This document shows, piece after piece, positions 17,272 through 37,983 of a stretch of 48,578 bases of DNA. The stretch lies in the NCBI GenBank assembly GCA_047621685.1, contig JBLHNG010000004.1, forward strand, positions 1 to 48,578. The letters are read 5' to 3'. Position 1 is the first letter of the stretch. Every line of letters begins with the position of its first letter. Source of the stretch: Myxococcota bacterium. Its GTDB lineage: Bacteria; Myxococcota_A; UBA796. The notes beneath the pieces are model-generated. The model made no database searches and was not told the origin of the DNA. It saw only the letters and a list, made by a program, of their open reading frames with translations. The position numbers were made by a program, and so were the translations under genes.

Positions 17272-18363
17272 TCAATACGGCATCGGCGAGCCGTCCCGAA
17301 AGACCGCCATCCAGGCAACATCGTCCGCCAACACCACCGCGATTCGATCCGCATCGCCATAGTCCCCTCCCCGCCGGGAGCGGACCACCCGCGCTCGGCC
17401 CTCCAGCAGCACCGCCCCGGAGCACTGTGCGAGGGAGACCGCCTCGCTGAGATCGGCGTCGGAGCGATCGGCGGCCCCCCGGGCGAGCAGGAGGTGGGCG
17501 AGCAGGAGGGGGAGCTGGCGCTCTCGGGCGAATTCGATCGGGCGGTGGACTCCGGCGGACAGCACCGCTTGACCGGCGGACAGGGCGGCTCGGATGAGAC
17601 CGGCCTCGGAGCGGTACAGCCCGGCGCGGCGACCGGCGGCGGTCCACAGCTTCCCGGCGTGGGTGTAGTGGGCGGCAGCCTGGTCGGGATCTCCGGCAAA
17701 CAGCGCGACCTCGGCCCGACTCATGATCGCGGCAGCGGCGGCCCCGGGGTGCTCAGCCATGGCCTCAGCCGCAGCGGCATAGCGAGCATCAGCTCCGGTC
17801 AGGTCTCCGGCCATGCGCAGCCGGGTGCCCTGGCGAAACCACACTGCGGCCTGCATGGGCTTGGGGGCGATCTGGGCGAGGGTCTTGAGGTGGGTGTGGG
17901 CCTCGTCGAGCTGGCCGAGGGCGTGCAGGGTGCCGATGAGGGTGTCCAGCGCCACTGCCTGATGGAGCGGGCTTATCGACCGCGCCAGTCCCTCCCGGGC
18001 GATGTCCGCAGCGATGTCGAGCTGTCCGGCCTGCTGGAGCACCCCGGCGAGTCGCACCCGCAGCATGCCGGACTTCGCGCCTTCTGGATCCACCTGGATC
18101 GCAGCAGTGAGGGTCTTCGCTGCGGCAGCCGGTCGGTCCGCTCGGCGAAGGGCGTCTCCAGCCGCAGAGAGGGACTGCTGCCGGGCGGGGACGGACAGCC
18201 CCGGGAGGTCAGCGATGTCCGCATAGGCCACCGCCGCCTCGGACCAGCGACCTGCCACGACCAGCGCATGGGCTGCCTGGACCGCCGCGTAAAGATCGGC
18301 CTCAGAAGCGACCGGCAACGCCGAGGTGTCCAAGCCCGATGACCGGGCGGACCGGGGCATCAA
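17272..18363 (-). CDS. TPR-like helical repeat protein
   Basis: Ala/Leu-rich repeats (AGRWSEAAVAY, AGQLDIAA, LGQLDEAH, AGDLTGADARY, AGDPDQAAAHY); start position uncertain. Confidence 0.65.
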   Translation of the reverse strand: MMPRSARSSGLDTSALPVASEADLYAAVQAAHALVVAGRWSEAAVAYADIADLPGLSVPARQQSLSAAGDALRRADRPAAAAKTLTAAIQVDPEGAKSGMLRVRLAGVLQQAGQLDIAADIAREGLARSISPLHQAVALDTLIGTLHALGQLDEAHTHLKTLAQIAPKPMQAAVWFRQGTRLRMAGDLTGADARYAAAAEAMAEHPGAAAAAIMSRAEVALFAGDPDQAAAHYTHAGKLWTAAGRRAGLYRSEAGLIRAALSAGQAVLSAGVHRPIEFARERQLPLLLAHLLLARGAADRSDADLSEAVSLAQCSGAVLLEGRARVVRSRRGGDYGDADRIAVVLADDVAWMAVFRDGSPMPY

Positions 18364-19387
18364 TGAGGAACGACGAGCCGGCCAGCGCCAGCCCCCCTGC
18401 AGTCAGGCCGATGGTGAGGATGCGGCTGGTGTTGAACCGGGTGGTGAGGTCGCTCGCTTCCGCCCGGGTCACGGTGTACGGGTCGTCGTTCGCTGCGGTG
18501 ATCTCGGCATAGGCCGGGTTGACCATGGCAAAGTTGACCACCAGACCGCCCGCCACCAGCGCCCCGCCCGAGGCGAGCATGTACGTCCCGAGGCCCGGAC
18601 CGCTGCGGCTGTTGCCCGGATCGGTGATGGCTGGATCGGTGACGGCTGGGTCGGTGACGGCTGGGTCGGTGACGGCTGAGGTCGGATCGACCTCAGCGAC
18701 CGGGTCGGTCTCCTCGACCGGATCCGAGTCGCCAAACGACGGGCCGAATTCCGACCACTCGTCCTCTTCTGCCACCGCAACCACCACTGAGGTGTCCACG
18801 CCATCCGGGCACAGCGCGAACCAGTCGACGGGCTTTGCGAAGTCCGTGACCACGCTGAAGGTGCCCTGCTCGTCGGGGCAGGCGATCTGTGCGAGGTGGG
18901 TGCCGCGGATCACGCTCTCTTCGGGACCGTGCTGCTCCCCGTCGACATAGAGCACTGCTGCCCCAACCTTCTCGGGCACTCCGGTCTCCAGGTAGCCCCG
19001 ACCCTCGACCTCGCCGCGCAGCGCCTCGAACAGGCTGATGAGATCGGAGTCGCCCATGAGATCGGCGTCCCAGGCAAAGTCGTTTCTCACGGTGAGGGCC
19101 TGACGCCAGGCGTCCTCAGCGCGGCCCTTCTTGTTGCCGGTGCCAAACTCCGCAGTGCCCTTGTAGAACCACACCCGGGCCAGCGAGCGGTTGCTGACGA
19201 GCGAATCGGATTCGTCGAGAGACTTCTCGATGAGCTTGAGGGACTTCAGCGCCTCTTTGTGCTCACCAGACGTGATCTGTGCGCGGACCGTGGTGAGGTC
19301 TTCGTCCAGGTTTCCGGCCTCAGCCGACAACGGCACCAGCAGCGCAAGGGCGGCAATGAGCCTCCCTACTCGCAGTCGCTCTCCCAT
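18302..19387 (-). CDS. Exported protein with TPR-like N-terminus and C-terminal hydrophobic segments
   Basis: Signal peptide ending LSAEA; helical repeat region; LYVDG beta segment (PEGA-like); acidic linker; hydrophobic C-terminus; overlaps kinase stop. Confidence 0.75.
   Translation of the reverse strand: MGERLRVGRLIAALALLVPLSAEAGNLDEDLTTVRAQITSGEHKEALKSLKLIEKSLDESDSLVSNRSLARVWFYKGTAEFGTGNKKGRAEDAWRQALTVRNDFAWDADLMGDSDLISLFEALRGEVEGRGYLETGVPEKVGAAVLYVDGEQHGPEESVIRGTHLAQIACPDEQGTFSVVTDFAKPVDWFALCPDGVDTSVVVAVAEEDEWSEFGPSFGDSDPVEETDPVAEVDPTSAVTDPAVTDPAVTDPAITDPGNSRSGPGLGTYMLASGGALVAGGLVVNFAMVNPAYAEITAANDDPYTVTRAEASDLTTRFNTSRILTIGLTAGGLALAGSSFLIDAPVRPVIGLGHLGVAGRF
18618..18677. repeat. 4 x 15-bp tandem repeat encoding (A[VI]TDP)4
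   Basis: GGATCGGTGAYGGCT / GGGTCGGTGACGGCT units. Confidence 0.85.
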
Positions 19388-21414
19388 TCACTCGCTCCCT
19401 GATCCACCTTGAAGGTGTACCGACAGGTCTTTTCGGGGACAGACTCGATGGTCGATCGAGCGGTGCTGTCTGCCTTGATCTTCGTTCGATAGACCCCGGC
19501 TGGCAGGCCGACCAGCTCCAGCTCTCCGGTGCCGTCCCAGGACTGCTCGAACTCACCGGTGGAGGCATTGAGCTTCACGCTCTGGACGGCACCCTCGACC
19601 TTGAGGATGACGGTCCCGGCATCGGGACCGACCACACCAAGCTCGATGCGCTGCCCGGGGATGCCCTCGATCGCCGGAGCGGCGACATCGGGTGGGGTCT
19701 CGGGCTGGGGATTGGTGGTGTTGGGCTTGCTGAACACCTTCAGCGCGACCACCGTGGCACCACCGCCAAACACCAACATCAGCAGCAGACCGAGCAGGAT
19801 CCACTTCCCCATTCCGCCACCGCTTGAAGGCTCCGGCTTTGGAGACTTCGGGGGAGCGGTACGGTCCGAGGATGGGGCCACGGCACCAGGGCCTGTGGGC
19901 TTGTTGCCAATGCTTGGGGAGATGGTCTGGTTGAACAGCTTCGCCGGGGGCGGCGGGGCGGCGGCCGGCTCCGGAGGGGGCTCGATGATCGTCGCCGCGG
20001 TCGGATCCGCGAACACCGGCACGGATGACTCGGGAAGCAGCGGCAGGACGGGCTCTGGCTGGGCGAACGCTGGCTGGGCGAACGCTGGCTGGGCGGGCTC
20101 CGACTGGGCGGGCTCCGACTGGGCGGGCTCCGACTGGGCGGGCAGCGGCGGCTGGGCGGGCAGCGGCGGCTGGGCGGGCTCAAGCGACTCGACAGGCACA
20201 CCGGGTCCAGGCACGGACATGCTCGGATCGATCGGGGCGTCCTCGAAGGCCATCGTGGAAGATGCCGGGGGAGCCGGCTCTGCTGGCGCGGTGTCTGCAG
20301 GCGTCGCGGCAACAACGGGCGGATCCGAGGTGTGGATTGAGCCCTCTACGAAGCCCCCAGAAGATGCCGGATCCGCAACGGAGGGTGGCTCCGCCTCGGC
20401 GGGGTCCATGGTCCAGTCCCCGTTGATCCCGGAGATGTCCTCGAACAGGGTGCTGCCAGCAAGGGGATCGACCGGGCCATCGGCGCTGATGAGTCGATCC
20501 CGGCACGGGGTGACGACCTCACGACAGAACCGCCGGAGGGAGCCGTCGTAGATCTCTTCAGAGAGGGCCTCCATGAGCTCAAGGGCCTGCCGGGCGTCTG
20601 GACGCTCGGTGGCCTCGTACTTCAGGAGGAGGTCGAGGGTCTGGCGGACCTGGTTGGCCCGGGTCTCGTCGAGATCGGACACATCGAGCTTTGCCATGCG
20701 CTCAATGTGGCTCTCGTCGTAGCGCTCCGGGCGGATGTGGATCTTGCCGAACGGCTCCAGGGTCAGCAGCTCGTAGAGTGTGACGCCGAGGGAGAAGATG
20801 TCGCCGGAGGGGGCGTCTGGATCACCGAGGAGGCGCTCGGGGGCCATGTAGGCCTGGGAACCAAACGCCAGGGCCTGGGTCTGGGCCTCGCGGTTCTCGA
20901 AGCGGGCCTGGGCGGTGCCGAAGTCGAGGACCTTGATGTCACCGGCTGCGGTCACCATGACGTTGCTGGGCTTGATGTCGCGGTGGATCAGGTTCAGGGG
21001 CTGACCGCCGCGCAGGGGCTCGCGGTAGTACGCCGCCTCCAGGGCCGATGCGGTGGCCGCGATCACCTCGAAGCAGACCCGACGTGGGATCGGCACCCCT
21101 GTCTCGGCGCTGTAGTTGATCAGCGACTTCAGATCGACACCGTCGAGGTACTCCATGATGACGGCGCACTGGCCGTTGAGGGAGGTGAGATCCTCGACCC
21201 GGATGATGTTGCGGTGGTGGAGCAGCCCCAGCACCCGGGCTTCATCGCGAGAGCGCTGGACGATCTCCTGGTGACCAAGCCACTTTCCATGGAGCAGCTT
21301 GATGGCAACGACGCTGGAGAAGTTGTTGTCGGTGACCATCTCCGCCATATACACCTTCCCGAAGGTTCCTTCGGAAAGCTGCTTCAGGAAGCGAAATCGC
21401 CGACGTGGCTCCAT
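19366..21414 (-). CDS. Membrane-anchored Hanks-type Ser/Thr protein kinase
   Basis: SEGTFGKVY, VAIK, HRDIKPSN, DFG, YMAPE, DIFSLG; Pro-rich linker; TM WILLGLLLMLVFGGGATVVAL; extracytoplasmic beta domain; start placed at MEPRRRF. Confidence 0.93.
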   Translation of the reverse strand: MEPRRRFRFLKQLSEGTFGKVYMAEMVTDNNFSSVVAIKLLHGKWLGHQEIVQRSRDEARVLGLLHHRNIIRVEDLTSLNGQCAVIMEYLDGVDLKSLINYSAETGVPIPRRVCFEVIAATASALEAAYYREPLRGGQPLNLIHRDIKPSNVMVTAAGDIKVLDFGTAQARFENREAQTQALAFGSQAYMAPERLLGDPDAPSGDIFSLGVTLYELLTLEPFGKIHIRPERYDESHIERMAKLDVSDLDETRANQVRQTLDLLLKYEATERPDARQALELMEALSEEIYDGSLRRFCREVVTPCRDRLISADGPVDPLAGSTLFEDISGINGDWTMDPAEAEPPSVADPASSGGFVEGSIHTSDPPVVAATPADTAPAEPAPPASSTMAFEDAPIDPSMSVPGPGVPVESLEPAQPPLPAQPPLPAQSEPAQSEPAQSEPAQPAFAQPAFAQPEPVLPLLPESSVPVFADPTAATIIEPPPEPAAAPPPPAKLFNQTISPSIGNKPTGPGAVAPSSDRTAPPKSPKPEPSSGGGMGKWILLGLLLMLVFGGGATVVALKVFSKPNTTNPQPETPPDVAAPAIEGIPGQRIELGVVGPDAGTVILKVEGAVQSVKLNASTGEFEQSWDGTGELELVGLPAGVYRTKIKADSTARSTIESVPEKTCRYTFKVDQGASEWESDCE
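20056..20181. repeat. Mixed 15/18-bp tandem repeats in the kinase linker
   Basis: Encodes (PAQPPL)2 (PAQSE)3 PAQ (PAFAQ)2 on the minus strand. Confidence 0.8.
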
Positions 21415-21790
21415 GATCGCGCTGGCTCCAGTTTGTGTCCTCAGGGGAGGACGCGCTGGCAGACTATATCGCATTCAGGGTCCAGTTGACGTTCCCCCAC
21501 AGATCGGAGTCAGCGCTGTGCCGGGGCTACTCGTCCGGGGTGCAGTGCAGCCAGCCGGCTTCCAGCTCCACCGTCCCTGAGGTGCCGTCGCAAAACCAGC
21601 ACGACTGGTCCCGACTGTCGACGAAGCCAAGCTGTGCGGTGCCCTCTGGTGGGGCTCGCCATCAAAGAAGGTCACCGGGGCTTGTCAGGCTGAGGACGAG
21701 GATGATGACGTGCTGTCGGCGCATCTGAGCTCCGATTCGAGGGACGGTCGTCACTGAAGCATGCTGGACCGAGAAGCCGTCTTGGGACAC

Positions 21791-22495
21791 TCACTCGCAG
21801 ATGCCACCGTCTCCCCGGGCCAGCTCAATGGTGAGGTGCATGAGGGCGAAGTACTCCACCAGCCGCTCCTCGATTCCCGGGTGGTCCTCCTTGACCTTGT
21901 CCCAGGACCACCGGCTCAGGGTCGTCGCACCCCAGGGGGAGTTGCCCTGGATGAGGGTCTCCTCGTTGAGGGTGAAGATGGACGCGATGGCCATGAGGGT
22001 GGAGTCTGGCTCGGCTGGGCGAGCGAGGTCGGCGGTCTCATAGACCCGCTGGATCGGCGCAGTCCTGGTCCATTCTTGTCGGCGGAGGCTGGAGACCTCC
22101 AGCAGGCTGACGGTCTGGCGCTTCTCCCCTTCCTGCTCGACGAGAAACTCCAGGCCGCCGTAGCGGGGGCGGCGCTGGCGTGTGCTTCCGCAGAGGGCAT
22201 CGGCCATGGCGCTGGACTCATCGGCAGAGCGCAGGAAGCCATAGAGCCGGTCGGGGTCGAGCTTGTCGATCCGGGCGACCGCTCGGTCCGCCATCGCCTC
22301 GTCCATGCCAAACGCCATGAAGTTGTCTTTTCGCTCCGAGACGCTGTACTGCATGTCGTGGTGGGGATCGGTCTTCTTCTGATCCTCCCGAAGCTCGGAC
22401 TCGCTCTTGGTGATCTCTTCGTTGACGATGATGTAGGAGCTGGTCGAGACTGCGGTGACGAACGCCCCGAAGACCATCCAGGTTCGCAGGCTCAT
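21791..22495 (-). CDS. Hypothetical protein with N-terminal membrane anchor
   Basis: N-terminal hydrophobic segment WMVFGAFVTAVSTSSYIIV; starts 3 bp after the transglycosylase stop. Confidence 0.75.
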   Translation of the reverse strand: MSLRTWMVFGAFVTAVSTSSYIIVNEEITKSESELREDQKKTDPHHDMQYSVSERKDNFMAFGMDEAMADRAVARIDKLDPDRLYGFLRSADESSAMADALCGSTRQRRPRYGGLEFLVEQEGEKRQTVSLLEVSSLRRQEWTRTAPIQRVYETADLARPAEPDSTLMAIASIFTLNEETLIQGNSPWGATTLSRWSWDKVKEDHPGIEERLVEYFALMHLTIELARGDGGICE

Positions 22496-22498
22496 GCT

Positions 22499-24106
22499 CT
22501 AAAGCTCCGGAACGTTGATGTCCTGACAGTAGCCGTCACCGAGCCAGTAGTCCTGCCAGGACTTCGGGAAGTCCGAGGGGAAGTGCTTGGCGTAGAAGCA
22601 GACCGCGAGGAGGTGCTGGGCGACGATGCTGTAGCCATAGTGCTGGGTCTGGTTCGGGATGAGCCCGCCGCAGGTCGAGCTGTAGAACTTGGCAACGTGG
22701 GGGTCGTTGACGGTCGGATCGCAGAGGATGTTGGCGCCGTAGTAGTCCGGCGCCCGCTCCTGGTTGGTGCGCTTGAGGTGGCGACCATAGGCGGTGAGCA
22801 TGTTGAGGCCTCGGGGCCGGCCGCCGTCATGGACCGAGTCGTCGAAGCCGGCGTTGTGGGACAGGATGGTGATCTGGACCGCAGAGCCGGACTCCTGGGT
22901 GGTGGGGTGATCCCAGGCCTCACGCAGCAGGTTGATTGCGCCGTCGGTGCTGCGGGCGAGATCCTGGCGTTCGTCGACCACGCAGCCCCTCTTCAGAAGG
23001 CAGACCGCAGATCCGGTCTCTGCGTTGTAGCTGACATACTCCGCGTTTTTTAGCACGCCCCTGGGCACGTAGTCCTTCGTCGGACTCCAGGTCCCGGTGC
23101 GCAGCTTGCACTCGCTGATCTCCAGGCCGACCCGGCGGCCAGTCTCCGGCATGAACTGCCACCAGCCCTCCGCACAGACCGGCGAGGTGATGCGGGAGCG
23201 GTAGCCGGACTCCCGATAGGGGATCGCGGCGAACACGGTCGGCAGCTCTGCCTTGGTGAGCTGCTCGGTGACATAGGCGTAGTCCTCGTGGATCTCACCG
23301 AGCCTCGACCAGAAGCTCCGGGCGCTAGCGTGCTGCTTCATCGAGAAGACGACGTACTTAAAGAAGATGTCGTCCCGGCGGGCTGTGCTGTGCAGCTCAT
23401 CCCACTCTGCCGCCTGGGCATTGGGGGAGACCACGAAGGCGTCAAATGCTCCCGTCATCCCGGTCAGCAGGGTCTGCTCGATGGTGTTGACCTCCTCGAT
23501 CTTGACCACATCGTAGGACTCCTTGCCCTCTTCCACCGGCCCCAGCGCGATGCGATCAGGGCGGAGGATCTCAACGGCGGGAATGGCGAGGCCGACGACG
23601 GTGAGCATCGCGACGATCAGCGAGGCGGGGATGAGCCAGCGGGGCACGCCGCCCTGGGTGTCGAGGGACTCGATGCGGATCGGCTGCACACCGTTGCTGC
23701 TCTGGGCGGCTTCCGAGAGGATCTGCCGCTGCTCCCAGACGCCCAGCCGGCGGCACTCCATGAACGAGATGGTCGCCCCTCGACCCGGGGCACCGAGGTG
23801 GAAGACGTCTCCGGGAGACAGGTGGACCGGGCCACGGAGGGTCTGAATTTCGGTCCAGTCGACGCTCTCATGGGGTGCGACCCGGACCTGGTTGGTGCCG
23901 ACCGGAGCGATGGCGACGGTGCCGCCATCGTAGGCCGTGATCACCGCCTGTCGGTTGTCGAGGCCGCGGTAGCCATCCAGCAGCAGTCCGCCAGGGCCGG
24001 GGCTCGCCCCCATCCGGACCACCGGGCCGCGGCACACGATGTCTCCCTGGTAGGACAGCGGTCCGCCGAGAAACCGCAGCACGACGTCCCACCGCTCCTG
24101 ACTCAT
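22499..24106 (-). CDS. FHA-like / TM / MltD-type lytic transglycosylase fusion
   Basis: SLT motifs AIPYRESGY (catalytic Glu), AEGWWQFMPETG, VDERQD, ILSHNAG; central TM; N-terminal beta domain VVRMGA...DNRQAVI...GTNQVRV...LSPGDVFHLG resembling a degenerate FHA. Confidence 0.8.
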   Translation of the reverse strand: MSQERWDVVLRFLGGPLSYQGDIVCRGPVVRMGASPGPGGLLLDGYRGLDNRQAVITAYDGGTVAIAPVGTNQVRVAPHESVDWTEIQTLRGPVHLSPGDVFHLGAPGRGATISFMECRRLGVWEQRQILSEAAQSSNGVQPIRIESLDTQGGVPRWLIPASLIVAMLTVVGLAIPAVEILRPDRIALGPVEEGKESYDVVKIEEVNTIEQTLLTGMTGAFDAFVVSPNAQAAEWDELHSTARRDDIFFKYVVFSMKQHASARSFWSRLGEIHEDYAYVTEQLTKAELPTVFAAIPYRESGYRSRITSPVCAEGWWQFMPETGRRVGLEISECKLRTGTWSPTKDYVPRGVLKNAEYVSYNAETGSAVCLLKRGCVVDERQDLARSTDGAINLLREAWDHPTTQESGSAVQITILSHNAGFDDSVHDGGRPRGLNMLTAYGRHLKRTNQERAPDYYGANILCDPTVNDPHVAKFYSSTCGGLIPNQTQHYGYSIVAQHLLAVCFYAKHFPSDFPKSWQDYWLGDGYCQDINVPEL

Positions 24107-24119
24107 GACTTCTCCCTAC

Positions 24120-26669
24120 TCACGACTTCGCCTTCTGCTGCAACATCAGCCGGAGCAGGCCAGTGCCGCTGTAGACATCAGCGAGGATGCTGTAGTTCGA
24201 CAGCGCGACATCATCAGCGAGCAGCTCCCAGTCACCGGCGGGCAGCGACAGCCACGCCGCGAGGTGGTCGATGAGGCTCACCGCTGGCACCGCGAGCCCA
24301 ACCGGCGCGACGAACCGCACCGGGGCCTCGCCACCAATGACCGAGATGTCTGCATGGAGGATGGTGTTGGGGATGTGGCGGAGGGTGTAGGTCTGCTTGT
24401 CGTCGAGGTCGGCCATGCGCTGACCGGGTGCGACCGGGGTCTCGCGGAGGGAGAGGCGATACCAGCCGGAGATCCGACCGGTGAGATCGGTACGCACCGG
24501 GATGATGTTGCCCAGCATCCAGGCGATGGCTTCGGAGACGGTGGCCGACAGCGGCAGCCGCATGCGCAGGGTCCGGCCGCTGGGTCCGCGTCGGATGTTG
24601 AACGACCCCACCCCGTCCCGCCCAGAGGCGGTGGTGATGCTGTCGGGCGGACGATCCAGAGATGCCGCAGCGACAAAGTCAGTCTGACCGGCGACCGCTG
24701 CCGCAGCCCTGGGGAGCGAGGGCACGGAGACGGCAGGGACTGCAACCTCAGGACGTGCCGGAGCAGGCTCGGGTGCCGCGACTCGTCTGTTGGAGGCCGG
24801 AGTCTCGGACACCGGGGCAGAAGCGGTCTTCACCGGGGGCTTTGCGAGGGGCTTCTTCGAGGCCGACTTCGCAGTCTTCGCCGTGGGCTTTGTCGCTGGC
24901 TTCGCTGGAGGCTTCTCAATGATTGGCGGAGGCTTCTCAATGATCGGCGGAGGCTTCTCAATGATCGGCGGAGGCTTCTCAATGATCGGCGGAGGCTTCT
25001 CAATGATCGGCGGAGGCTTCACCTCTGGTGGCTGCGGGCGGGGCACCGGGCCGGTCTCGGCGAGCCCTTCGCTGAGCGGCGGGGCGACCGGGCGCTCGAG
25101 CACCTCTGCACGACGGGGCGTGGAGAGGTTGGCGAGGCTGGCTTCGATGGAGCGAGAGATGATCGAGGCCTTCTCGCCACCCTCCTCGTTCAGCCCCCGC
25201 CGACGGGGCACCCGTCGGACCCGACCCGGCACGAAGCGGGGCTTGTCGGGGACCTCGGGGGTGATGTTCTTCTGGAAGTTGCTGTTCTTGCTAGAGCTGC
25301 CGAGGATGGACTGGATCACCCCTGCTGCGGAGCGTCGGTTCTCTTCGCGCTGGGTGAGCTTCTCGGGACTGACGTCCGGGGCAGATGCTCGAATCCGGGC
25401 CAGGAGGTCCGCTGCGTTGCCTCCGCTGCTGCGCACAACCTGGGCGGGCTCGATGTCCTCGACGCTGCTGGGCTCGGGCTCAGGCTGGGGTGGCATCCGG
25501 CGACGGGCTGGACGGGACCAGCGGGGCTTCTCGGGCTCCTCGGTGACCACAGCGACAGGCGGGACGACTGGAGGCGGGGTGGGCTGAGACGGCTCAGGCT
25601 CGGCAGCCGCGATCTCTTCAGGCTTGACGAGGCGCGGGGCTTTCCGGCGGGTGGAGCGGGCGGACGGGCTCCAGCTCTTGCGCTCTGGCTCCGGCTCGTC
25701 CTCGTCGAGCATGCCCTGGATCTGCTCTCGGGAGAGCATCTGGGTCTTCCCGCTCTCCAGGGCCTTGCCGATCCGGCGTCCCTGAGAGCTGACCCGATTC
25801 ATCAGGTCCATCAGCGAGCCGCCGGTGGCGTCCGGGCTGGAGATCACCCGGCGAACCTCATCGAGGTAGTCCTCGCCGGTCTCGAAGCGGTCCCCGATGT
25901 CTGGACGCAGGGCGCGGGTGAGCAGCTCGCAGACGCTGGTCGGCAGCTTGTCCCGAAAGCGGTAGAGCCGACGGCTGGTCTCGCCACGGGCTGCCTGCTG
26001 TCGGATGTCATCGACGAGGCCGTCATAGACCGGTCGGCCAGTCATCAGCTCAAACGCAATGAGGGAGAGCCCGAACAGGTCGCTGGTGAGGTTCTCCGGG
26101 GCGAATTCGATGCGCTCAGGAGGGCAGTAGCGGAAGGAGTCGACCCCGGGGATGCGCTTGTCGTCCTCGTGGAACTGGAGAATCTCGACCTGAGGCAGCG
26201 CATAGCCGATGATCTCGACCTGGCCGTCCTTCTTGAGCATGATCCGGCGTGGGGTGAGCCCACCGTGAGAGTAGATGCCGTCGCGCTCGCCCCGCTCGGC
26301 GGCCTCCGCGAGGATCTGAGCGGCGGAGTACATCAGCTCCAGCCCGGCGCGGACGTGGCCCTCGCTCTCGCCGATGTCCGCGAGGCTGCGAATGACCTCA
26401 GCGACCGACCAGCACTGCCCGGTGGGGTAGATGAACACGCCCTGGCTGCTGTCGCGCTCGACCAGCTCCGCGAGCCCGGTGACCAGCGGGGACTCCAGGA
26501 AGCCGACCACCACCTCCAGGGCCTCCCCGAGGGCGCGGTGACCACGGTACTCGGGGTGGAAGACGATGGCGGTGTGACGGAGCCCGTTGTCCGAGGTCAG
26601 CTCGATCAGATCCGATGCCGGGCCGGTCAGCTGACGTCCGGTCTCACTAAACCCAGCAATGCTGTCCAT
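24120..26669 (-). CDS. Ser/Thr pseudokinase with Pro-rich linker and two putative C-terminal ubiquitin-like domains
   Basis: Kinase C-lobe motifs YCPPE, SDLFGL, ELMTGRP, RF; HGGLTPRR replaces HRDxKPxN, GYA replaces DFG, no VAIK Lys; GGAG RBS before ATG 26669. Confidence 0.8.
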   Translation of the reverse strand: MDSIAGFSETGRQLTGPASDLIELTSDNGLRHTAIVFHPEYRGHRALGEALEVVVGFLESPLVTGLAELVERDSSQGVFIYPTGQCWSVAEVIRSLADIGESEGHVRAGLELMYSAAQILAEAAERGERDGIYSHGGLTPRRIMLKKDGQVEIIGYALPQVEILQFHEDDKRIPGVDSFRYCPPERIEFAPENLTSDLFGLSLIAFELMTGRPVYDGLVDDIRQQAARGETSRRLYRFRDKLPTSVCELLTRALRPDIGDRFETGEDYLDEVRRVISSPDATGGSLMDLMNRVSSQGRRIGKALESGKTQMLSREQIQGMLDEDEPEPERKSWSPSARSTRRKAPRLVKPEEIAAAEPEPSQPTPPPVVPPVAVVTEEPEKPRWSRPARRRMPPQPEPEPSSVEDIEPAQVVRSSGGNAADLLARIRASAPDVSPEKLTQREENRRSAAGVIQSILGSSSKNSNFQKNITPEVPDKPRFVPGRVRRVPRRRGLNEEGGEKASIISRSIEASLANLSTPRRAEVLERPVAPPLSEGLAETGPVPRPQPPEVKPPPIIEKPPPIIEKPPPIIEKPPPIIEKPPPIIEKPPAKPATKPTAKTAKSASKKPLAKPPVKTASAPVSETPASNRRVAAPEPAPARPEVAVPAVSVPSLPRAAAAVAGQTDFVAAASLDRPPDSITTASGRDGVGSFNIRRGPSGRTLRMRLPLSATVSEAIAWMLGNIIPVRTDLTGRISGWYRLSLRETPVAPGQRMADLDDKQTYTLRHIPNTILHADISVIGGEAPVRFVAPVGLAVPAVSLIDHLAAWLSLPAGDWELLADDVALSNYSILADVYSGTGLLRLMLQQKAKS
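24907..25020. repeat. About 5.4 x 21-bp tandem repeat encoding (KPPPIIE)5
   Basis: GGAGGCTTCTCAATGATCGGC unit, one variant copy, no spacers. Confidence 0.92.
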
Positions 26670-26731
26670 CCCCACTCCCCTCTCCAATCCCCAATCCCCT
26701 CAACCGACAAGGCCGTTGATATCATACGCCT

Positions 26732-28291
26732 GTGCAGTCTGGACTCAGCCATCGCAAAGACCGTCGCCCGGATGCCCTCAAGGATCTCAACGAGGAGCTG
26801 CAGAAGCAGAACGACCGGGAACTGGAGCACCTGGAGGAAGGCCAGGAGCTGTCTGCTGAGCAGACCGCGACCCTCCAACCGCAGGTCGGCAACCAGGCCA
26901 TCCTCAACCTGCTCAACCGCCTATCCAGCGCCTCCAGCTCCATCTCCAACGTCGAGTTTGAAGAGGAGCAGGAGGAAGAGGAGATCCAGGAGCAGGAGGA
27001 GGATCTTGAGTCCGATATGGAGCTTCGCCACCTCGGCGGCGGGGGCGGCGGAGGGGGCGGAGGGTCCGCCGGGAATCCCTGGGAGGTCGGGCACCTGTTC
27101 GGCGGAGAAGACGACAATCCGACCGGTGCGCCGCAGCGCCCCCGTCGGCGGAGCACCGCACGGCGCGAAGACGGAGAGATCGAGGATCCATTCGCGGAGG
27201 AGTACCCCGACGCCCTCTCCAGCGAAGATCTCACCGGGATCGATGCCGCCCTCGGTCCGATCGCCTCGCGCTCCGATCAGCCCCGCTGGGGAGACGCCCG
27301 CTACGAGGCAGTCGAGGGCGCGCTGCTGGATCCGGCGCGGCTGGGGCGGGCGGTGCTGACCCCGGAGTCCCTCATCGGGTACAGCGGTCCGAAGGATCCC
27401 CTCGGTCGTGCTGCGGAGATCGGCCGCTTCCTCTCCGCACTGGATGCAGAAGCCCCCATCGCGGCGCTGCTTGTCGGTCCGGCCCCGTCGCTGATGACCG
27501 CAGCCTCAGGCTACGCGGGGGCTGCGGCAAGGCTGGCCTGCCTCGCGGTGTGCGCGGAGGCTGCGGAGGGCGGAGAGCGGGACACCGACGCAGCGGTCGC
27601 GCTGGCGCTGATTCGGGATGCCTGGCCCACAGCAGTGGATGCCGCCCGGGACGCCGCACGCCGGGGGCGCCTGCATGCACCGCTGATTGTGGCGATGGTC
27701 CTCGGGGAGCCGGAGTCCCTGCCCGGCGCACACGCCCGCCTCGGTCCAGCCAACCTGCTCGGCGGTCTGGCGCTGGAGCGGGTGCTGCCGGAGGGCTTCA
27801 TCCCCACCATCCCCTCCCTCGACTTCACCCCGCCGCCAGCCCCGCCGATCTTCAACGACGCACTCGCCGCTGCAGACGCGGTGCTCGCTCGAATGACCGG
27901 AGGGCTCGATCCGCTGGATCCTCCGACCCCGCCGACCCTCACCGCAGAGTCGCTCCAGCCGATCCTCGCGGCCGCCAATGCCCTGATGTCCGCCATGGGC
28001 AAGGCGCAGGTTGAGGCTGCTGCAGCGGCGATCGCGGTGCGACAGATCCGCAGCGATGCCCCGATCCGCAGCCCCCTGGCCCACACCGATCGGGCGCTTC
28101 GTGAGCTGGCCCGGGGCGTCATCAAGGCCGGACGAAGCCTGGAGAAGAACCAGGGCAAGTCGCTGATGCAGGCCCGAGAGCCCGCAGAGCGTGCGGTCAT
28201 CGCCCTCCGAGACAGCGCCGCGGCCCTCGCCGCGCTGCGCAGCTGGGTGTTTGCCACCCTCGCAGGCGCGCTCCATGCGAAGGCCGCGTGA
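26732..28291 (+). CDS. Hypothetical protein, candidate CIS cargo (N-terminal LQxxxGNQA motif)
   Basis: LQPQVGNQAILNLL; poly-Glu and Gly10 tracts; Ala-rich helical C-terminal part; GTG start uncertain. Confidence 0.7.
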   Translation: MQSGLSHRKDRRPDALKDLNEELQKQNDRELEHLEEGQELSAEQTATLQPQVGNQAILNLLNRLSSASSSISNVEFEEEQEEEEIQEQEEDLESDMELRHLGGGGGGGGGGSAGNPWEVGHLFGGEDDNPTGAPQRPRRRSTARREDGEIEDPFAEEYPDALSSEDLTGIDAALGPIASRSDQPRWGDARYEAVEGALLDPARLGRAVLTPESLIGYSGPKDPLGRAAEIGRFLSALDAEAPIAALLVGPAPSLMTAASGYAGAAARLACLAVCAEAAEGGERDTDAAVALALIRDAWPTAVDAARDAARRGRLHAPLIVAMVLGEPESLPGAHARLGPANLLGGLALERVLPEGFIPTIPSLDFTPPPAPPIFNDALAAADAVLARMTGGLDPLDPPTPPTLTAESLQPILAAANALMSAMGKAQVEAAAAAIAVRQIRSDAPIRSPLAHTDRALRELARGVIKAGRSLEKNQGKSLMQAREPAERAVIALRDSAAALAALRSWVFATLAGALHAKAA

Positions 28292-28977
28292 TGACCGACC
28301 TTGAGGCGCTGATCGCCCATCCTGATGCCGCCTGGCTGCTCGCGGATCGACTCCGGGATCTGCGCGGAGACACCTCGGAGCGGCTCCAGATCCACACCGC
28401 GCTGGCCCGAATCTGCACCTCGGGTGGAGACCGGGTCGCTGCCCGGGAGCACCTGGAGGCCGCCCATGCCATGGCGCATCGGCTGGGAGAGCACGCCCAG
28501 GCCCGCGTCCTCCGACAGCGCCTCGCCCTGCACCTCCTCAGCATCGGCCTGCCCGCCCTCGCCGAGCCACACCTGCGCGAGGCCCTCCTCGATGCGGTGG
28601 ACACCGACGACACCCTGATGGTCGTGGCCCTCGGCACCAGCCTCTCCGCGACCCGCCTGGAGGCGTCCGACTGGACCGAGGCCCGCAAGATCGGGGCGCA
28701 GGTTGTCACAGCGGCATCCCGGCGGGGCAATTGGCTGGGGGTCACCGACGGGCTCATCACCCAGGCCACCGGCCTCCTGGGACTCGGCGCCCCCCTCACC
28801 GACGCCATCGCGCTGATGCTCCACGGCGGCCAGCGCCTCAGCGCAGCGGGAGCGGTCGCAGCGGTCAACCTCATCAAGGCTCGACTCGGAGAGCTGCGGG
28901 CGGAGCGTGGGGCCGAGGTGTTCGATGCCGCCCTCCAGGCCGCGCTCGCCAGACTCCGGGCTGCTCAGCGCTCTTGA
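28288..28977 (+). CDS. TPR-like helical protein
   Basis: GTGA overlap with upstream stop; repeats GGDRVAAREHLEAA, IGLPALAEPHLREA, ASDWTEARKI. Confidence 0.7.
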   Translation: MMTDLEALIAHPDAAWLLADRLRDLRGDTSERLQIHTALARICTSGGDRVAAREHLEAAHAMAHRLGEHAQARVLRQRLALHLLSIGLPALAEPHLREALLDAVDTDDTLMVVALGTSLSATRLEASDWTEARKIGAQVVTAASRRGNWLGVTDGLITQATGLLGLGAPLTDAIALMLHGGQRLSAAGAVAAVNLIKARLGELRAERGAEVFDAALQAALARLRAAQRS

Positions 28978-28979
28978 GG

Positions 28980-29942
28980 TCAGGCCACCTGAGCGTTGCA
29001 GACCGCACAGAACCGCTGGTCACCCCGATACACCGCGACCCGGGCCTGGTAGCAGCCGGAGTGGAAGTGCTGGCCGCAGTTGAAGGGGCAGTCCATGCGC
29101 ACCTCCGCGGTCACTGAGCCCCTGCAGATCCCACAGTCCACCACCGCGACGGCCTCCTGGGCGGCCTCGATCGTTGGGGCCTGCTCCGGCAGCGGCTCGA
29201 CAGCCCCCCACCACGCCAGCCAGCCGACGAACACGCCGAGGAAGCCGGTGATCACGCCGGGAGCCACGTCTCGGAAGATGACCTCAAAGGTCGGGGGGAC
29301 GGCTCGACCAGGGAGCGCGGTGAGCACGCTGGGGGCAAGCAGGTCGGCGGCGGCGGTCACCGCGAGGGTCAGGGCCATCATCATGATGAACAGCACCAGC
29401 GCAGTGAGCGCGACCCGGGCGCGGTACGCCTGTCCGCCCCAGGCATGGCGGGCGAAGTTGCAGCAGAGCAGCCCGAGTCCGACGCCCGGCAGCAGGACCA
29501 CTCCCAGCTGTCGGGACACGCTCAGGGCTGCCCCCCAGCCCACCGCCCAGGCCACCACGAGGCCGACAGTGCTCATCAACGCGGGGATGCCGCTGCCGGC
29601 GTAGCCAAAGTTCTCCGGGTAGTCTGGTGGCTGCTCCAGCACCCCGCTGCCATGCGGAGGCTCGGGGAGGAGGTAGACCAGCTCTCCGTCGATGACCCCG
29701 AGCTGGCTGAGGGTCTCCTTGTCGCCCAGCAGCCGACCGCGTGCCCTCAGCCAATACAGGCGCCGCTGGCCGTTCTGCCAGTGGGAGTCCAGGCCTGCGT
29801 CACGGACGATGCGCTGGGTGAGGTCCTGCGCGGGCAGGAAGGTGGGCACCTGGAGGTCGAGGGTGAACGACTGCATGTCGACGACCTGCACCCGAAGCGT
29901 GACGGTCTGATCGCCCTCTGCAAAGCTGCCCGCGTAGTCCAT
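28980..29942 (-). CDS. EsaB/YukD-like ubiquitin-fold + 4 TM + C4HC3 RING/PHD-type zinc-finger protein
   Basis: LDLQVP...LLGDKETLSQLGVIDGELVYL (YukD-like); four hydrophobic helices; CGIC-x11-CPFNC-x4-HSGC-x14-CAVC. Confidence 0.8.
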   Translation of the reverse strand: MDYAGSFAEGDQTVTLRVQVVDMQSFTLDLQVPTFLPAQDLTQRIVRDAGLDSHWQNGQRRLYWLRARGRLLGDKETLSQLGVIDGELVYLLPEPPHGSGVLEQPPDYPENFGYAGSGIPALMSTVGLVVAWAVGWGAALSVSRQLGVVLLPGVGLGLLCCNFARHAWGGQAYRARVALTALVLFIMMMALTLAVTAAADLLAPSVLTALPGRAVPPTFEVIFRDVAPGVITGFLGVFVGWLAWWGAVEPLPEQAPTIEAAQEAVAVVDCGICRGSVTAEVRMDCPFNCGQHFHSGCYQARVAVYRGDQRFCAVCNAQVA

Positions 29943-31919: not shown

Positions 31920-32855
31920 CTACCGCTGCGCTTCGACGGTGCGCTCCAGCTCGTCAGAGATCTTGTTGAGCGGACCAAGCAGGCGCTCGAACTTGTCAAA
32001 CCACCGCAGCCAGATCTCGTTGGCCTGATCGGGTGCCGGCACCTCGGCATGGACCCGACGCACGAACTCCTTGAACTGCACGATGCGATCGACGCTGACC
32101 GGCAGGTTGTTGAAGAACTCGTGGGCGTAGTTGATCAGCGATCCGGCGGTCCGATACAGGACCCGGTCGCTGGTGCCCTCCTCGATGAGCAGAAACTCAC
32201 TGGAGATCAGCGCGGAGTTGAACGACAGGGTCGACAGCTCCAGCTCCCGCAGCGAGTTGGTGCGCAGGAGGTTGTTGATGATCTTCTTGTTGACCCGGAT
32301 GAAGGTCTCGACCCGGGGCTTGAGGTAGCTCTCCGCGGCACGCTCCTGACGACCGGCGCGGGGCACCGGGAGGAGGACCTGGACCATGCGACCCAGCCGG
32401 ACGTTGATCCGGCACAGGGCGACGGCGTCGGGCTGGTCGGAGTCGATGGTGTGCAGCCGCGGCGCGCAGCTCTCCACCACCCGGGACTCCTGACGCTCGT
32501 TGGTGTCGAAGATCGGCCGGTTGAAAGCTTCGTCGGGGGCCTCAACATGGAACAGCCAGAGCATGTACTCGCCGTCCTTCTTGGGGACCTCGAGCTGCAC
32601 CGCGACGGCTTCTGGGAGGCGCACCTGCTGCCCCATCCGGGTGATGCCGAAGCCCGCCTGGATGATCGCGACGTAGCGCTTGCCCTTCTGCTGAAGCTCA
32701 ACCTGGAGGCCCTGGACGATGCCGTGACCGTGCAGGTAGAGGTTGTGCCGATGGATGTTGTTGCGGTGGTAGGTCTGCTCGTCTTCGAGATCCCGTGCTG
32801 TGAGACACAGGCCCTCGAAGGGACGCATTCGACGGAGGAGTTGGTCTTTGCTCAT
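31920..32855 (-). CDS. CIS baseplate-associated / fibre-attachment protein
   Basis: RMRPFEGLCLTARDLEDEQTYH...HNLYLHGHGIVQGLQV...AGFGITRMGQ, an N-terminal motif typical of genes following eCIS baseplates; last gene of the operon. Confidence 0.7.
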   Translation of the reverse strand: MSKDQLLRRMRPFEGLCLTARDLEDEQTYHRNNIHRHNLYLHGHGIVQGLQVELQQKGKRYVAIIQAGFGITRMGQQVRLPEAVAVQLEVPKKDGEYMLWLFHVEAPDEAFNRPIFDTNERQESRVVESCAPRLHTIDSDQPDAVALCRINVRLGRMVQVLLPVPRAGRQERAAESYLKPRVETFIRVNKKIINNLLRTNSLRELELSTLSFNSALISSEFLLIEEGTSDRVLYRTAGSLINYAHEFFNNLPVSVDRIVQFKEFVRRVHAEVPAPDQANEIWLRWFDKFERLLGPLNKISDELERTVEAQR

Positions 32856-37483: not shown

Positions 37484-37501
37484 GATCTTGTGGCGTACCC
37501 T

Positions 37502-37894: not shown

Positions 37895-37917
37895 ACACCC
37901 CTTCTGTCGTAGACATG

Positions 37918-37971: not shown

Positions 37972-37983
37972 GCTGCGCGGGAC

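Follow-up and report, generated by a model that had tools for sequence, protein, structure and literature searches.

Gene content of the locus

The window considered here is the whole 48,578-nt stretch of contig JBLHNG010000004.1 (GCA_047621685.1) from a Myxococcota bacterium of GTDB UBA796. Strands were chosen by third-position GC content (GC3), and 53 open reading frames (ORFs) of at least 80 aa were scanned for protein families. An earlier note, made from the sequence alone, had placed a kinase, an FHA-TM-MltD protein, a pseudokinase with ubiquitin-like (Ubl) domains and a Ubl-4TM-finger protein about 2 kb from the end of a CIS operon. All four are present there, and the gap between the nearest gene, g8, and the last CIS gene measures 1,978 nt. 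Their orientation, described as mostly uniform, had to be corrected, as the genes from kinase through pseudokinase lie entirely on the minus strand; g1-g5 and g8 are all minus-strand genes and g6 and g7 plus-strand genes. Two plus-strand ORFs (21761-23053 and 24105-27359) were discarded as shadow frames, having GC3 values of 0.61 and 0.71, respectively, versus 0.83-0.87 in the minus-strand genes.

In relatives, the order g5-g4-g3-g2 is conserved as an operon, with g1 following g2. Gene g2 (19366..21474, minus strand) encodes a 702-aa Hanks-type Ser/Thr kinase (Pkinase, E = 3.1e-36) carrying VAIK, HRD164, DFG184 and APE211, one transmembrane (TM) segment (559-577) and, after it, an extracytoplasmic C-terminal domain of ~125 aa. 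Given its complete motifs, it is predicted to be an active TM kinase, as the earlier note had it. The 361-aa product of g1 (18302..19387, minus) is an exported or membrane protein with an N-terminal signal-like stretch and hydrophobic segments at 271-289 and 323-341, for which no Pfam or NCBIfam match was obtained. Tentatively, g0 (17272..18363, minus) can also be counted in the module; this 363-aa TPR protein (TPR families, E = 7.5e-5 to 8e-3, at or below the Pfam cut-offs) has a homologue downstream of g1 at loci L030, L034, L035, L040 and L048, and it closes the kinase operon in several relatives. The 234-aa protein g3 (21791..22495, minus; GC3 0.86) belongs to no family and bears an N-terminal membrane anchor (TM 6-24); in relatives its gene invariably sits between g4 and g2, with 27-40% identity outside the genus.

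The 535-aa protein g4 (22499..24106, minus) combines an FHA fold (1-122), a TM segment (163-181) and a periplasmic MltD-like lytic transglycosylase. In Foldseek comparisons of its structure model (pLDDT 86.6), residues 1-122 superimpose on FHA domains with TM-scores by target of 0.75-0.80 and an rmsd of 2.5-2.8 Å, and the C-terminal portion resembles MltD and MltF; sequence matches to SLT (5e-7) and MltD (8rhe, E = 8.4e-9) agree with the earlier FHA-TM-MltD description. The catalytic Glu299-Ser300 and six cysteines are invariant in a homologue alignment (A2). On reading of the same alignment, the canonical phosphothreonine-binding Gly-Arg and Ser were not found in the FHA-fold domain, where Asp replaces Ser; hence, a simple relay from kinase g2 to the FHA fold of g4 is uncertain.

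Protein g5 (24120..26687, minus; 855 aa) is a soluble Hanks-type pseudokinase. Residues 1-305 form a PknB-like kinase fold in the predicted structure, with a weak Pkinase match (1.9e-4), while the VAIK lysine is missing and HGG and IGY stand in place of HRD and DFG in 21 homologues. A disordered, Pro-rich linker of ~385 aa (306-690) with five EKPPPII repeats leads to two beta-beta-alpha-beta-beta units (693-851, predicted structure), which match tandem ubiquitin/ISG15-like models with a TM of about 0.5. The pseudokinase of the earlier note is thus borne out, and its two C-terminal Ubl beta-grasp domains can be taken as a lead from modelling. Two plus-strand genes lie between g5 and g8. The first, g6 (26732..28291), encodes an acidic, Gly/Ala-rich protein of 519 aa without family, for which no significant PDB or Pfam match was found by profile or with 12 members; homologues (26-78% identity) occur in 20 loci, and part of the order shares this placement of the gene. 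The second, g7 (28288..28977), encodes a 229-aa TPR protein (TPR_12, 2.4e-4) whose profile matches LGN/Pins and kinesin-light-chain TPRs (E = 6e-10 to 1e-5).

The 320-aa protein g8 (28980..29942, minus) consists of a YukD domain (~17-91; E = 4.5e-7, 31 bits versus a cut-off of 27), four hydrophobic TM segments (122-239) and a C4HC3 zinc finger (270-315), in which C270, C273, C285, C289, H294, C297, C312 and C315 are invariant among homologues. The Ubl domain is N-terminal and runs on into the TM segments. The former label Ubl-4TM-RING therefore holds for its first two parts, while the finger is better called PHD/RING-like, since among PDB sequences it comes closest to PHD fingers (Pygopus, E = 0.003), followed by RING fingers (AMFR, 0.035).

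Across the gap lies c311 (31920..32855, minus), the last CIS gene, whose product is similar in its N-terminal domain to Cis13 and Cis19, proteins of the baseplate periphery. Residues 7-129 match NCBIfam CIS13_fam (2.8e-14, far below the equivalog cut-off), and residues 17-85 weakly match Cis19/All3314 of the Anabaena tCIS (7b5h, E = 0.0028). No hydrophobic segment was found in c311, and a fast-evolving receptor-binding part is absent. Its conservation across the order (mean column identity of 73% in 26 sequences) would suit a constant partner in the own cell better than a variable target receptor. The rest of the CIS (32859..48578, minus) was assigned by Pfam matches and comprises a P2_I-like protein, a 1169-aa Baseplate_J protein, gp25, a GPD hub, CIS_tube-LysM, a 1322-aa unknown protein, two tubes, two sheaths and the start of a Pvc16-like cap. 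It continues past the contig end; in a genome of the same genus (G001), the cluster goes on with the Pvc16 cap, an eCIS_core protein and an AAA+WHD ATPase. As noted earlier, FtsK/EssC, WXG100, ClpV and TssJLM gave no family match among the 53 ORFs scanned.

Linkage and inheritance with the CIS

Relatives were compared in 182 genomes of the class, all of them MAGs, with 154 from the order of the window and 28 from outside. Of the 77 loci whose upstream flank reaches 1.2 kb or more, 64 have c311 as the immediate upstream neighbour of g8 in the same orientation (median gap 48 nt), so that g8 ends the CIS operon there. In the other 13 the two genes are apart, and two of these loci come from genomes of family f7; G027 has g8, g4 and c311 on three contigs. 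Within the order, g8 is present in 139 genomes, c311 in 140 and g4 in 140, and inheritance across the order is vertical and at a fixed position, with 33-63% identity outside the genus. Outside it, neither g4 nor full-length g8 occurs in any of the 28 genomes (two weak YukD-only matches aside), and nothing equivalent was found in other orders.

Losses are shared as well. All three genes are jointly absent from 10 of the 154 genomes, five of which are 94-97% complete (G022, G038, G072, G073 and G092) and five less than 90% (G008, G060, G077, G079 and G093). These are confined to few genera (genus labels g13, g36, g39, g44, g45 and g3); the two genomes of genus g13, G022 and G038, are also without a g5 orthologue (best match 31 bits), and G072 retains only fragments of the orthologous sheath. 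In four genomes, g8 and c311 occur without a g4 match (G048, 90% complete; G112, G032 and G129). A genome keeping g8 or g4 and demonstrably devoid of the CIS was not found in the class set. One candidate, G068, which had seemed to carry g4 without a CIS, was dismissed on account of its orthologous sheath (73% identity). The search for relatives in which these genes occur independently of the CIS, suggested in the earlier note, was thus run and does not speak against the link. Gene order, co-occurrence and co-loss, together with the Ubl, finger and SLT genes at the CIS end in sister lineages (see below), support a link of the module to the CIS by context. Co-occurrence as such can simply reflect that CIS and module, both near-universal, belong to the core gene set of the order.

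The link is less tight for the kinase operon. Among 41 loci with a downstream flank of 9 kb or more, g5-g4-g3-g2 lies within 10 kb of g8 in 17 but not near it in 24, and in G006, G027, G028 and G031 it is on other contigs than g8. Hence, of the envelope platform tied to the CIS that had been proposed, the linkage stands by context, while proximity of its kinase part does not hold generally. Kinase/FHA/wall-enzyme growth circuits of the PknB/FhaA type are well known, and g5-g4-g3-g2-g1 might be an ordinary signalling unit for envelope growth or division that is near the CIS by descent, with only g8 being CIS-related. Its single-copy, near-universal presence in the order (140/154), its frequent separation from g8 and the lack of kinase and pseudokinase at sister-lineage CIS loci would fit such a unit. 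Housekeeping wall genes, however, should outlive CIS loss, whereas g4 is gone from the same 10 genomes as c311 and g8, including the five nearly complete ones, and is missing from all 28 genomes outside the order. Moreover, a g4-related TM-SLT protein stands beside the CIS/Ubl cassette of one sister lineage, and the Ubl domains of g5 match the Ubl theme of g8. We regard an ordinary growth or division unit as unlikely.

A ubiquitin-like cassette in sister lineages

In two sister lineages of the same class, the place of g8 after the CIS is taken by ThiF-E1, a TM-finger protein, a Ubl of the YukD type and a UQ_con E2. Genes for a JAB peptidase and an SLT protein are close by, and the E1/E2/Ubl/JAB set lies directly after a c311-like gene or within ~12 kb of it. 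In G166, the c311-like gene is accompanied by ThiF (1.3e-35), a 4TM-Cys finger, YukD (1.5e-5), UQ_con (2.3e-7), a TM-SLT protein (8.5e-6; hhalign probability to g4 of 83%) and Prok-JAB. In G170, it is accompanied by ThiF (1.3e-42), YukD (2.5e-5), UQ_con (1e-6) and a TM-finger protein aligning with g8 122-318 (hhalign probability 71%, E = 3.7e-5), with SLT and JAB nearby. The E2 occurs in all 11 sampled genomes of families f11/f12, less than 3 kb from the c311-like gene in G166, G170, G176 and G179. In the order of the window, it was found in none of the 59 genomes sampled, save two weak matches, which leaves the g8 finger without a partner E2 among them. A weak search of the window's own genome, in which the family control matched nowhere either, did not find it, and within ~10 kb of g8 no E1, E2 or JAB was found in the window or about 100 loci of the order.

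Accordingly, g8 looks like a fused descendant of a CIS-embedded ubiquitin-like system. With the Ubl joined to the TM-finger and the sampled genomes of the order yielding no clear E2, g8 probably binds rather than conjugates. Being absent from the sister-lineage loci, kinase and pseudokinase appear to be a later addition. This kinship to bacterial ubiquitin-like conjugation cassettes, which the earlier reading did not contain, is more telling than the likeness to T7SS, and in the literature searched no report tying YukD or ubiquitin-like parts to a CIS was found.

Alternatively, g8 and its relatives might regulate CIS assembly or turnover without anchoring the CIS. The sister-lineage E1, E2, TM-finger and JAB would then attach a YukD-type Ubl to a baseplate or fibre-like protein, for instance c311, and remove it, and the fusion in the order of the window would retain a non-covalent version of such control. 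Besides the full sets at the c311-like genes of G166 and G170, parallels exist in Bil tagging a phage tail fibre and in the Ubl and JAB of phage lambda tail assembly; phage tail assembly clusters contain a Ubl (TAPI) and a JAB protein (TAPK; PMC1779556), and YukD is an assembly factor in T7SSb (PMC12637312). On the other hand, the E2 is missing from the sampled genomes as described, the Ubl of g8 could not be conjugated unless cleaved, and four TM segments and a co-inherited kinase/transglycosylase operon are left unexplained. This alternative appears somewhat unlikely. It is compatible with the anchoring model, the two not being mutually exclusive.

Proposed function and comparison with known systems

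We lean towards regarding these genes as an inner-membrane accessory module dedicated to the adjoining CIS, whose lineage would have been passed on vertically within a single order of uncultured Myxococcota. From the domain content we infer an anchoring or triggering role: g8 and the kinase/pseudokinase/transglycosylase set probably form a docking and control station of the CIS in the cell envelope, whose topology, protein contacts, signalling direction and role in firing would be as follows. With its four TM segments, g8 would sit in the inner membrane with YukD domain and C4HC3 finger both cytoplasmic, receiving the baseplate via c311 as Cis13/Cis19-like peripheral protein. The g5-g4-g3-g2-g1 operon would supply control and wall passage: kinase g2 may sense a signal outside the cytoplasm, pseudokinase g5, with its long linker and two putative Ubl domains, may serve as scaffold and likely substrate and, like YukC with the YukB FHA domains in T7SSb, may bind to the FHA fold of g4, and the MltD-like domain of g4 would open peptidoglycan at the docking site. 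In evolutionary terms, the module would derive from the conjugation cassette still found after the CIS in sister lineages (E1, TM-finger, YukD Ubl and E2, with JAB nearby), and in the order of the window the Ubl, fused to the TM-finger protein, would probably work by binding.

Individual parts recur in other machines. In T7SSb, the Ubl YukD is a non-conjugated assembly factor (PMC12637312) that joins the FHA region of YukB to the pseudokinase YukC, and a YukD-family Ubl, a pseudokinase and an FHA fold are shared with the window (PMC12637312; PMC9600267). The T7SS resemblance named earlier is one of parts and not of membership in a T7SS: an FtsK-type ATPase, WXG100/LXG substrates and YueB/EsaA are lacking in the window, its pseudokinase is of the Hanks type, soluble and equipped with two putative Ubl domains, its FHA fold is fused to a transglycosylase rather than an ATPase, and its host is a diderm myxobacterium.

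The T6SS resembles the module in that a TM Hanks kinase and an FHA protein control a contractile machine and a transglycosylase serves wall crossing. The T6SS-associated lytic transglycosylase MltE lets the machine cross the wall. The threonine-phosphorylation pathway of the T6SS comprises the kinase PpkA, Fha and PppA (PMC3953482). In contrast, TssJLM and ClpV are missing from the window, the kinase operon showed no PP2C phosphatase, FHA and transglycosylase share a single polypeptide, and there is a pseudokinase-diUbl protein in addition.

Bil/Bub systems (E1, E2, Ubl, peptidase) resemble the ThiF-E1, UQ_con-E2, small Ubl and JAB of G166 and G170, and Bil targets a phage tail protein (PMC11601603), i.e. 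a tail-like structure as is the CIS here. Unlike these, the window is without E1, E2 and JAB and has a YukD-family Ubl fused to a TM-finger, and the cassette is part of a vertically inherited CIS operon and no mobile defence operon. The set might nevertheless serve anti-phage defence as an island of Bil/Bub-like or kinase-based type, or be a degenerate T7SS beside the CIS by chance, given that E1/E2/Ubl operons of bacteria can act in defence (PMC11601603), that the kinase domains of g2 and g5 partly match the defence kinases MADS6 and PglW, far below cut-offs, and that T7SSb parts are present. The vertical inheritance at a fixed position contrasts with patchy mobile islands, however, and the missing conjugation genes around g8, the absence of FtsK/EssC and WXG100 families among the ORFs scanned and a g5 without TM, as opposed to the membrane pseudokinase YukC/EssB, render this highly improbable.

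Membrane-associated CIS offer a comparison for the proposed docking station. The thylakoid tCIS of Anabaena is anchored by Cis13, Cis12 and Cis19, with Cis13 being fibre-like with its own TM helix, Cis12 contributing an extension and Cis19 a crown (PMC8894136; PDB 7b5h). Membrane contact is thus made by peripheral baseplate proteins, which the N-terminus of c311 weakly matches; whereas the fibre-like protein there carries the TM itself, c311 has none and a separate 4TM protein follows, and no Ubl, finger, kinase or transglycosylase is described for the Anabaena system. The cytoplasmic CIS of Streptomyces coelicolor needs the membrane protein CisA. This protein is not built into the particle; its cytoplasmic portion is predicted to touch the CIS, and both contraction and function depend on it (PMC12237407). 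Like g8, CisA is a conserved membrane protein whose gene accompanies a CIS, in a bacterium of the multicellular type. By its abstract and section titles, that report describes CisA as bitopic and names no Ubl or zinc finger in it and no kinase, pseudokinase or transglycosylase set with it, whereas g8 combines four TM segments with YukD and C4HC3.

Gene layout beside the contractile injection system

The whole window corresponds to a single contig (G000:C4) from a MAG of 8.4 Mb and 89.8% completeness. Due to its high G+C content (59-70%), long open reading frames are found on both strands, and genes were therefore picked by means of third-position GC. This places g1 (18302-19387), the kinase gene g2 (19366-21474), g3 (21791-22495), the FHA-fold-TM-MltD gene g4 (22499-24106) and the pseudokinase gene g5 (24120-26687) on the minus strand, followed by g6 (26732-28291) and g7 (28288-28977) on the plus strand and by g8 (28980-29942), encoding a ubiquitin-like (Ubl) membrane-finger protein, again on the minus strand. 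The plus-strand ORFs 21761-23053, 23288-24274 and 24105-27359 were ruled out as shadow ORFs by the same measure. Farther away, a small plus-strand biosynthetic cluster (10702-15330) combines a type III polyketide synthase, recognised by its Chal_sti_synt N and C domains, with a 202-aa ORF, an AMP-binding ligase and a FAD monooxygenase; TerC and a short-chain dehydrogenase come next.

According to Pfam matches, the contractile injection system (CIS) occupies the minus strand from 31920 to the contig end. Read from 31920, its order is c311 (31920-32855, the last gene of the CIS), a P2_I-like gene, a 1169-aa Baseplate_J gene, gp25, a GPD hub, CIS_tube-LysM, a 1322-aa protein, then tube, short sheath, tube, sheath (603 aa) and, at the contig end, the beginning of a Pvc16-like cap. 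In G001, a genome of the same genus, the cluster extends into the Pvc16 cap, an eCIS_core protein and an AAA+WHD ATPase; judged from this continuation, the locus is of the complete Afp/eCIS type. For the 1322-aa ORF (39680-43648), neither Pfam nor NCBIfam offers a family; its position, flanked by the tube-LysM gene and a tube gene, would suit a tape measure or cargo protein. A second sheath-like gene, 42-49% identical across the C-terminal half, is present at G000:C400:246-923 and at similar places in many relatives, pointing to a second contractile system in each of these genomes.

Between g8 and c311 (29941-31851), two further genes are wedged in: g9, a plus-strand gene of 443 aa without family, and an N-terminal aminoglycoside-phosphotransferase fragment on the minus strand (31330-31851; Pfam APH, 1.7e-14). 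This stretch has the appearance of DNA that was inserted recently and contains a decayed gene. In G001, g8 and c311 are 715 nt apart.

Proteins of the module and of the baseplate periphery

The earlier note had read the set as an active transmembrane (TM) kinase, an FHA-like-TM-MltD protein, a pseudokinase with two Ubl-like domains and a Ubl-4TM-RING protein; the first three assignments are borne out and the last one in part. Protein g2, an active Hanks kinase, matches Pkinase (3.1e-36) with the VAIK, HRD, DFG and APE motifs all in place, and possesses a single TM segment and approximately 125 extracytoplasmic residues. For g4, a structure model was built with 26 homologues (pLDDT 86.6), in which residues 1-122 adopt an FHA beta-sandwich (Foldseek matches CT664, OdhI, GarA and Rv0020c; TMt 0.72-0.80, rmsd 2.5-3.2 Å over about 112 columns), followed by a TM helix and a remainder that fold-matches MltD and MltF. 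By sequence, this part matches SLT (5e-7) and MltD (8rhe, 8.4e-9), the ES of the query being aligned with the ES of MltD, and the catalytic E299-S300 is invariant across the 26 sequences. Fold and E-S motif thus identify g4 as a putative family 1 lytic transglycosylase (SLT/MltD-like) with predicted activity. Phosphothreonine binding by FHA domains relies on a conserved Gly-Arg, Ser-x-x-His and Asn. No FHA sequence-family match was obtained for g4, and inspection of its alignment by eye suggests that this site may be altered: an Asp occupies the Ser position, the conserved Gly is not followed by Arg, and the His is mostly kept, with Gln in the window.

Residues 1-305 of g5 are modelled as a PknB-type Hanks kinase fold, in which HRD is replaced by HGG and DFG by IGY and the VAIK lysine is absent in all 21 aligned homologues. 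A disordered linker (about 385 residues) joins this kinase-like domain to two beta-grasp units at 693-851, which resemble tandem ubiquitin/ISG15 (TM about 0.5, to be taken as a lead). There is no TM segment, the single hydrophobic stretch being situated inside the second Ubl. The linker carries EKPPPII five times in tandem (at about 24912-25031), and among homologues its length is highly variable, with whole proteins of 613-990 aa. A homology of the second Ubl to the YukD domain was considered and dropped: hhalign of g5 against g8 aligns the two with a probability of only 7%, which is no evidence of homology. Likewise unsupported is a reading of g6 and g7 as a decayed E1 and E2; g7 is a TPR protein, and for g6 nothing credible emerged from a profile search against PDB sequences or from 12 members searched against Pfam.

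In g8, residues 17-91 match YukD (PF08817) with an E-value of 4.5e-7, scoring 31 bits where the cut-off is 27, and the protein has four hydrophobic segments; the Ubl and membrane parts of the earlier assignment stand. Its RING label is less certain: the finger has eight invariant C4HC3 ligands (C-x2-C-x11-C-x3-C-x4-H-x2-C-x14-C-x2-C), and its best sequence matches in the PDB are both PHD and RING fingers, all weak (E 0.003-0.1). We take the spacing to fit the PHD pattern best. A RING E3 ligase would have a cross-brace finger of C3HC4, C3H2C3 or C4HC3 type to which an E2 binds. Prokaryotic RING fingers, reportedly a subject of Burroughs et al. in 2011, may bear on such TM-finger proteins. Among the 120 listed of 403 clusters, relatives of g8 carry the public names 'EsaB/YukD family protein', 'uncharacterized ubiquitin-like protein YukD' and 'hypothetical protein'.

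At its N-terminus, c311 is similar to the N-terminal part by which Cis13/Cis19-type peripheral proteins bind the baseplate, and it has no membrane segment. With a mean column identity of 73%, it is unusually conserved compared to g8 (54%), g4 (48%) and g5 (33%). A predicted complex of c311 and g8, each entered with its alignment, scored 0.00 in two runs with no folded controls, a result that counts neither for nor against binding.

Linkage to the injection system and cassettes of sister lineages

Directly upstream of g8, on the same strand, lies c311 in 64 of the 77 g8 loci with enough upstream sequence (median gap 48 nt, which is also the median of the genera other than that of the window); the window and G001 depart from this adjacency only because of the insertion. 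The genes g5-g4-g3-g2, in part with g1 and the TPR gene g0, form a conserved operon with often overlapping stops and starts. It is found within 10 kb of g8 in 17/41 loci having at least 9 kb of flank, and elsewhere farther off or on another contig. A weaker rival would make the kinase operon a general circuit of wall growth, merely co-inherited with the CIS.

Presence and absence were surveyed across all 182 genomes of the class, all of them MAGs, 154 of which belong to the window's order. Within the order, g8 is present in 139, c311 in 140 and g4 in 140 genomes; in the other 28 genomes of the class, neither full-length g8 nor g4 was found. All three are jointly absent in 10 genomes, five of which (G022, G038, G072, G073 and G092) are 94-97% complete, and G022 and G038 additionally lack a g5 orthologue. 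Discordant genomes are fragmented or contain other CIS genes, such as the orthologous sheath in G068, G085 and G010; g8 and c311 occur without a g4 match in four genomes (G048, G112, G032 and G129). In G072 (95% complete), where g8, g4 and c311 are absent, the orthologous sheath is broken into three pieces (G072:C23:1408-2688), and this genome may represent a CIS caught decaying along with its accessory genes. The earlier note had named independent occurrence in relatives as an argument against a functional link; among the 182 genomes of the class, no genome with g8 or g4 yet demonstrably without CIS was found. Since the co-absences fall into six genera of three families and kin are not independent, this pattern is suggestive of a coupling of g8 and g4 to the CIS and is no statistical proof. 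For g8 as a candidate membrane adaptor in a CisA-like role, conserved adjacency to the CIS and co-loss with it are what the comparison shows.

Sister lineages of the same class, reached via weak matches, carry a CIS of only 26-38% identity. In G166 (L133, G166:C180:122000-141999), Baseplate_J and P2_I are followed by a c311-like gene, a ThiF E1 (1.3e-35), a 197-aa 4TM protein with C-terminal Cys finger, a YukD Ubl (1.5e-5; 35-42% identity with the g8 N-terminus) and a UQ_con E2 (2.3e-7, HPN...C motif). Adjoining this cassette are a TM-SLT protein with FHA-like N-terminus, whose SLT part is related to g4 (hhalign 83%), and a Prok-JAB peptidase. The same locus also holds a T2SSE-type ATPase, an HTH_3 regulator and a Gp49-like (HigB-type) toxin gene beside the cassette (L133 3540-5940), and a SNF2 helicase farther on. 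A second genome, G170 (L145, G170:C10:62000-81999), displays co-oriented genes with short gaps for a c311-like protein, ThiF (1.3e-42), a 219-aa TM-finger protein, a YukD Ubl of 96 aa and a UQ_con E2, with genes for an SLT and a JAB protein at a distance of a few kb. Its TM-finger protein aligns by hhalign to g8 residues 122-318 (71%, E 3.7e-5) and provides the one usable match, as that of G166 reaches a probability of 14%; for g4 against the G170 SLT protein, the probability is 25%.

An E2 is encoded in 11/11 sampled genomes of families f11 and f12; in G166, G170, G176 and G179 it is at most 3 kb from the c311-like gene, and in G165 and G175 the two are on different contigs. Sampling 59 genomes from the window's order yielded no credible E2, nor was one found in G000, the latter being a weak negative since the family control was found nowhere. 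Searching the G166 proteins by tblastn (E 1e-3) against the window and about 100 loci of the order gave no E1, E2 or JAB near g8. The kinase, the pseudokinase-diUbl gene and the other operon genes were found only in the window's order and not at the sister-lineage loci. Given the Ubl and TM-finger genes behind the c311-like gene in sister loci and their likeness to g8, the latter looks, by sequence, like a protein in which the Ubl and TM-finger components of a CIS-embedded ubiquitin-like conjugation cassette have been fused.

Proposed working and comparison with known systems

In the scheme that we propose, g8 would be the membrane receptor for the CIS, presumably contacting it via c311, and the g5-g1 operon would supply the trigger and the passage across the wall. 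Here, g2 would sense a signal outside the cytoplasm, g5 would serve as scaffold and substrate, and the MltD-like domain of g4 would open peptidoglycan locally. Additionally, g5 may bind the FHA fold of g4 in the way that, according to excerpts of two sources, YukC binds the FHA region of YukB in T7SSb, aided by YukD (PMC12637312, PMC9600267). All contacts and the direction of signalling in this scheme are ones that we infer. A close rival has the Ubl system govern assembly or turnover of the baseplate periphery, with a parallel in Bil systems, which attach their tag to a phage tail protein as stated in part of the source (PMC11601603). This rival is compatible with g8 as a receptor, and both can hold.

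Tentatively, and with a good deal of doubt, a class-wide, built-in ubiquitin-type control of CIS can be envisaged: an ancestral E1, E2, membrane finger ligase and JAB would attach a YukD-type tag to the baseplate periphery, and the machine would thereby be docked, licensed or dismantled at the inner membrane. A fused Ubl-membrane-finger receptor and a phosphorylation circuit of active kinase, pseudokinase with di-ubiquitin-like tail and FHA-gated peptidoglycan cutter would have taken the place of this chemistry in the window's order. If true, contractile weapons would have an undescribed control layer that recurs among them, namely ubiquitin-like signalling, and the YukD of T7SS would be a further offshoot of it.

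The locus bears on the question of how contractile injection systems other than T6SS make contact with, traverse or exit the envelope of the cell that produces them. To our knowledge, only two anchoring solutions have been described, CisA (Streptomyces) and Cis12/Cis13 (Anabaena). The locus is a third, richer candidate whose predicted parts lend themselves to biochemical work, namely an active kinase, a pseudokinase acting as scaffold, a transglycosylase gated by an FHA domain and a ubiquitin-like membrane receptor. Excerpts of the respective sources state that in Anabaena, a fibre-like Cis13 anchors the CIS by its own TM helix (PMC8894136), and that firing in Streptomyces depends on CisA, a separate membrane protein (PMC12237407). 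The locus also ties CIS to bacterial ubiquitin-like conjugation. As far as we know, the cellular targets of such conjugation systems are mostly unknown; the sister-lineage cassettes point to an obvious candidate, the c311-like baseplate protein. Moreover, the YukD family is extended past type VII secretion and monoderm bacteria, and a course of evolution is proposed that starts from a conjugating cassette and leads to a fused receptor that does not conjugate, accompanied by a kinase circuit. In a literature survey below full-text level, no link of YukD, pseudokinase or ubiquitin-like cassette to CIS was found, nor anything on this module in work on contractile injection systems in Myxococcota.

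Compared to known systems, the set shares the kinase and the FHA fold with the threonine phosphorylation pathway of T6SS, whereas the machine here is of the eCIS/Afp type (Pvc16 cap, eCIS_core and AAA+WHD ATPase in G001). As the earlier note had observed, TssJLM, ClpV, FtsK ATPase and WXG100 are all missing among the scanned window ORFs (at least 80 aa): a Pfam scan of the window revealed no TssJ, TssL, TssM or ClpV family, and none of the 53 ORFs scanned matched FtsK_SpoIIIE (EssC/EccC) in Pfam. Since the Tss core genes are absent, this is not the T6SS phosphorylation pathway. With T7SS, the YukD/EsaB-type Ubl domain of g8 is shared, and the accessory likeness claimed before holds for the YukD domain, a pseudokinase and the FHA fold; it does not extend to the EssB type or to an EssC-type ATPase. 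EssB/YukC is a membrane pseudokinase, while g5 has a PknB-type fold without TM segment and no match to the YukC family (Pfam, NCBIfam). Hence, with neither EssC nor WXG100 found among the scanned ORFs of at least 80 aa and a pseudokinase that is not of the EssB type, the window set is not a T7SS. Finally, Bil/Bub operons unite E1, E2, Ubl and peptidase. The window, in which the G166 proteins found no E1, E2 or peptidase by tblastn, accordingly holds no such operon, whereas the sister loci of G166 and G170 do have that content.
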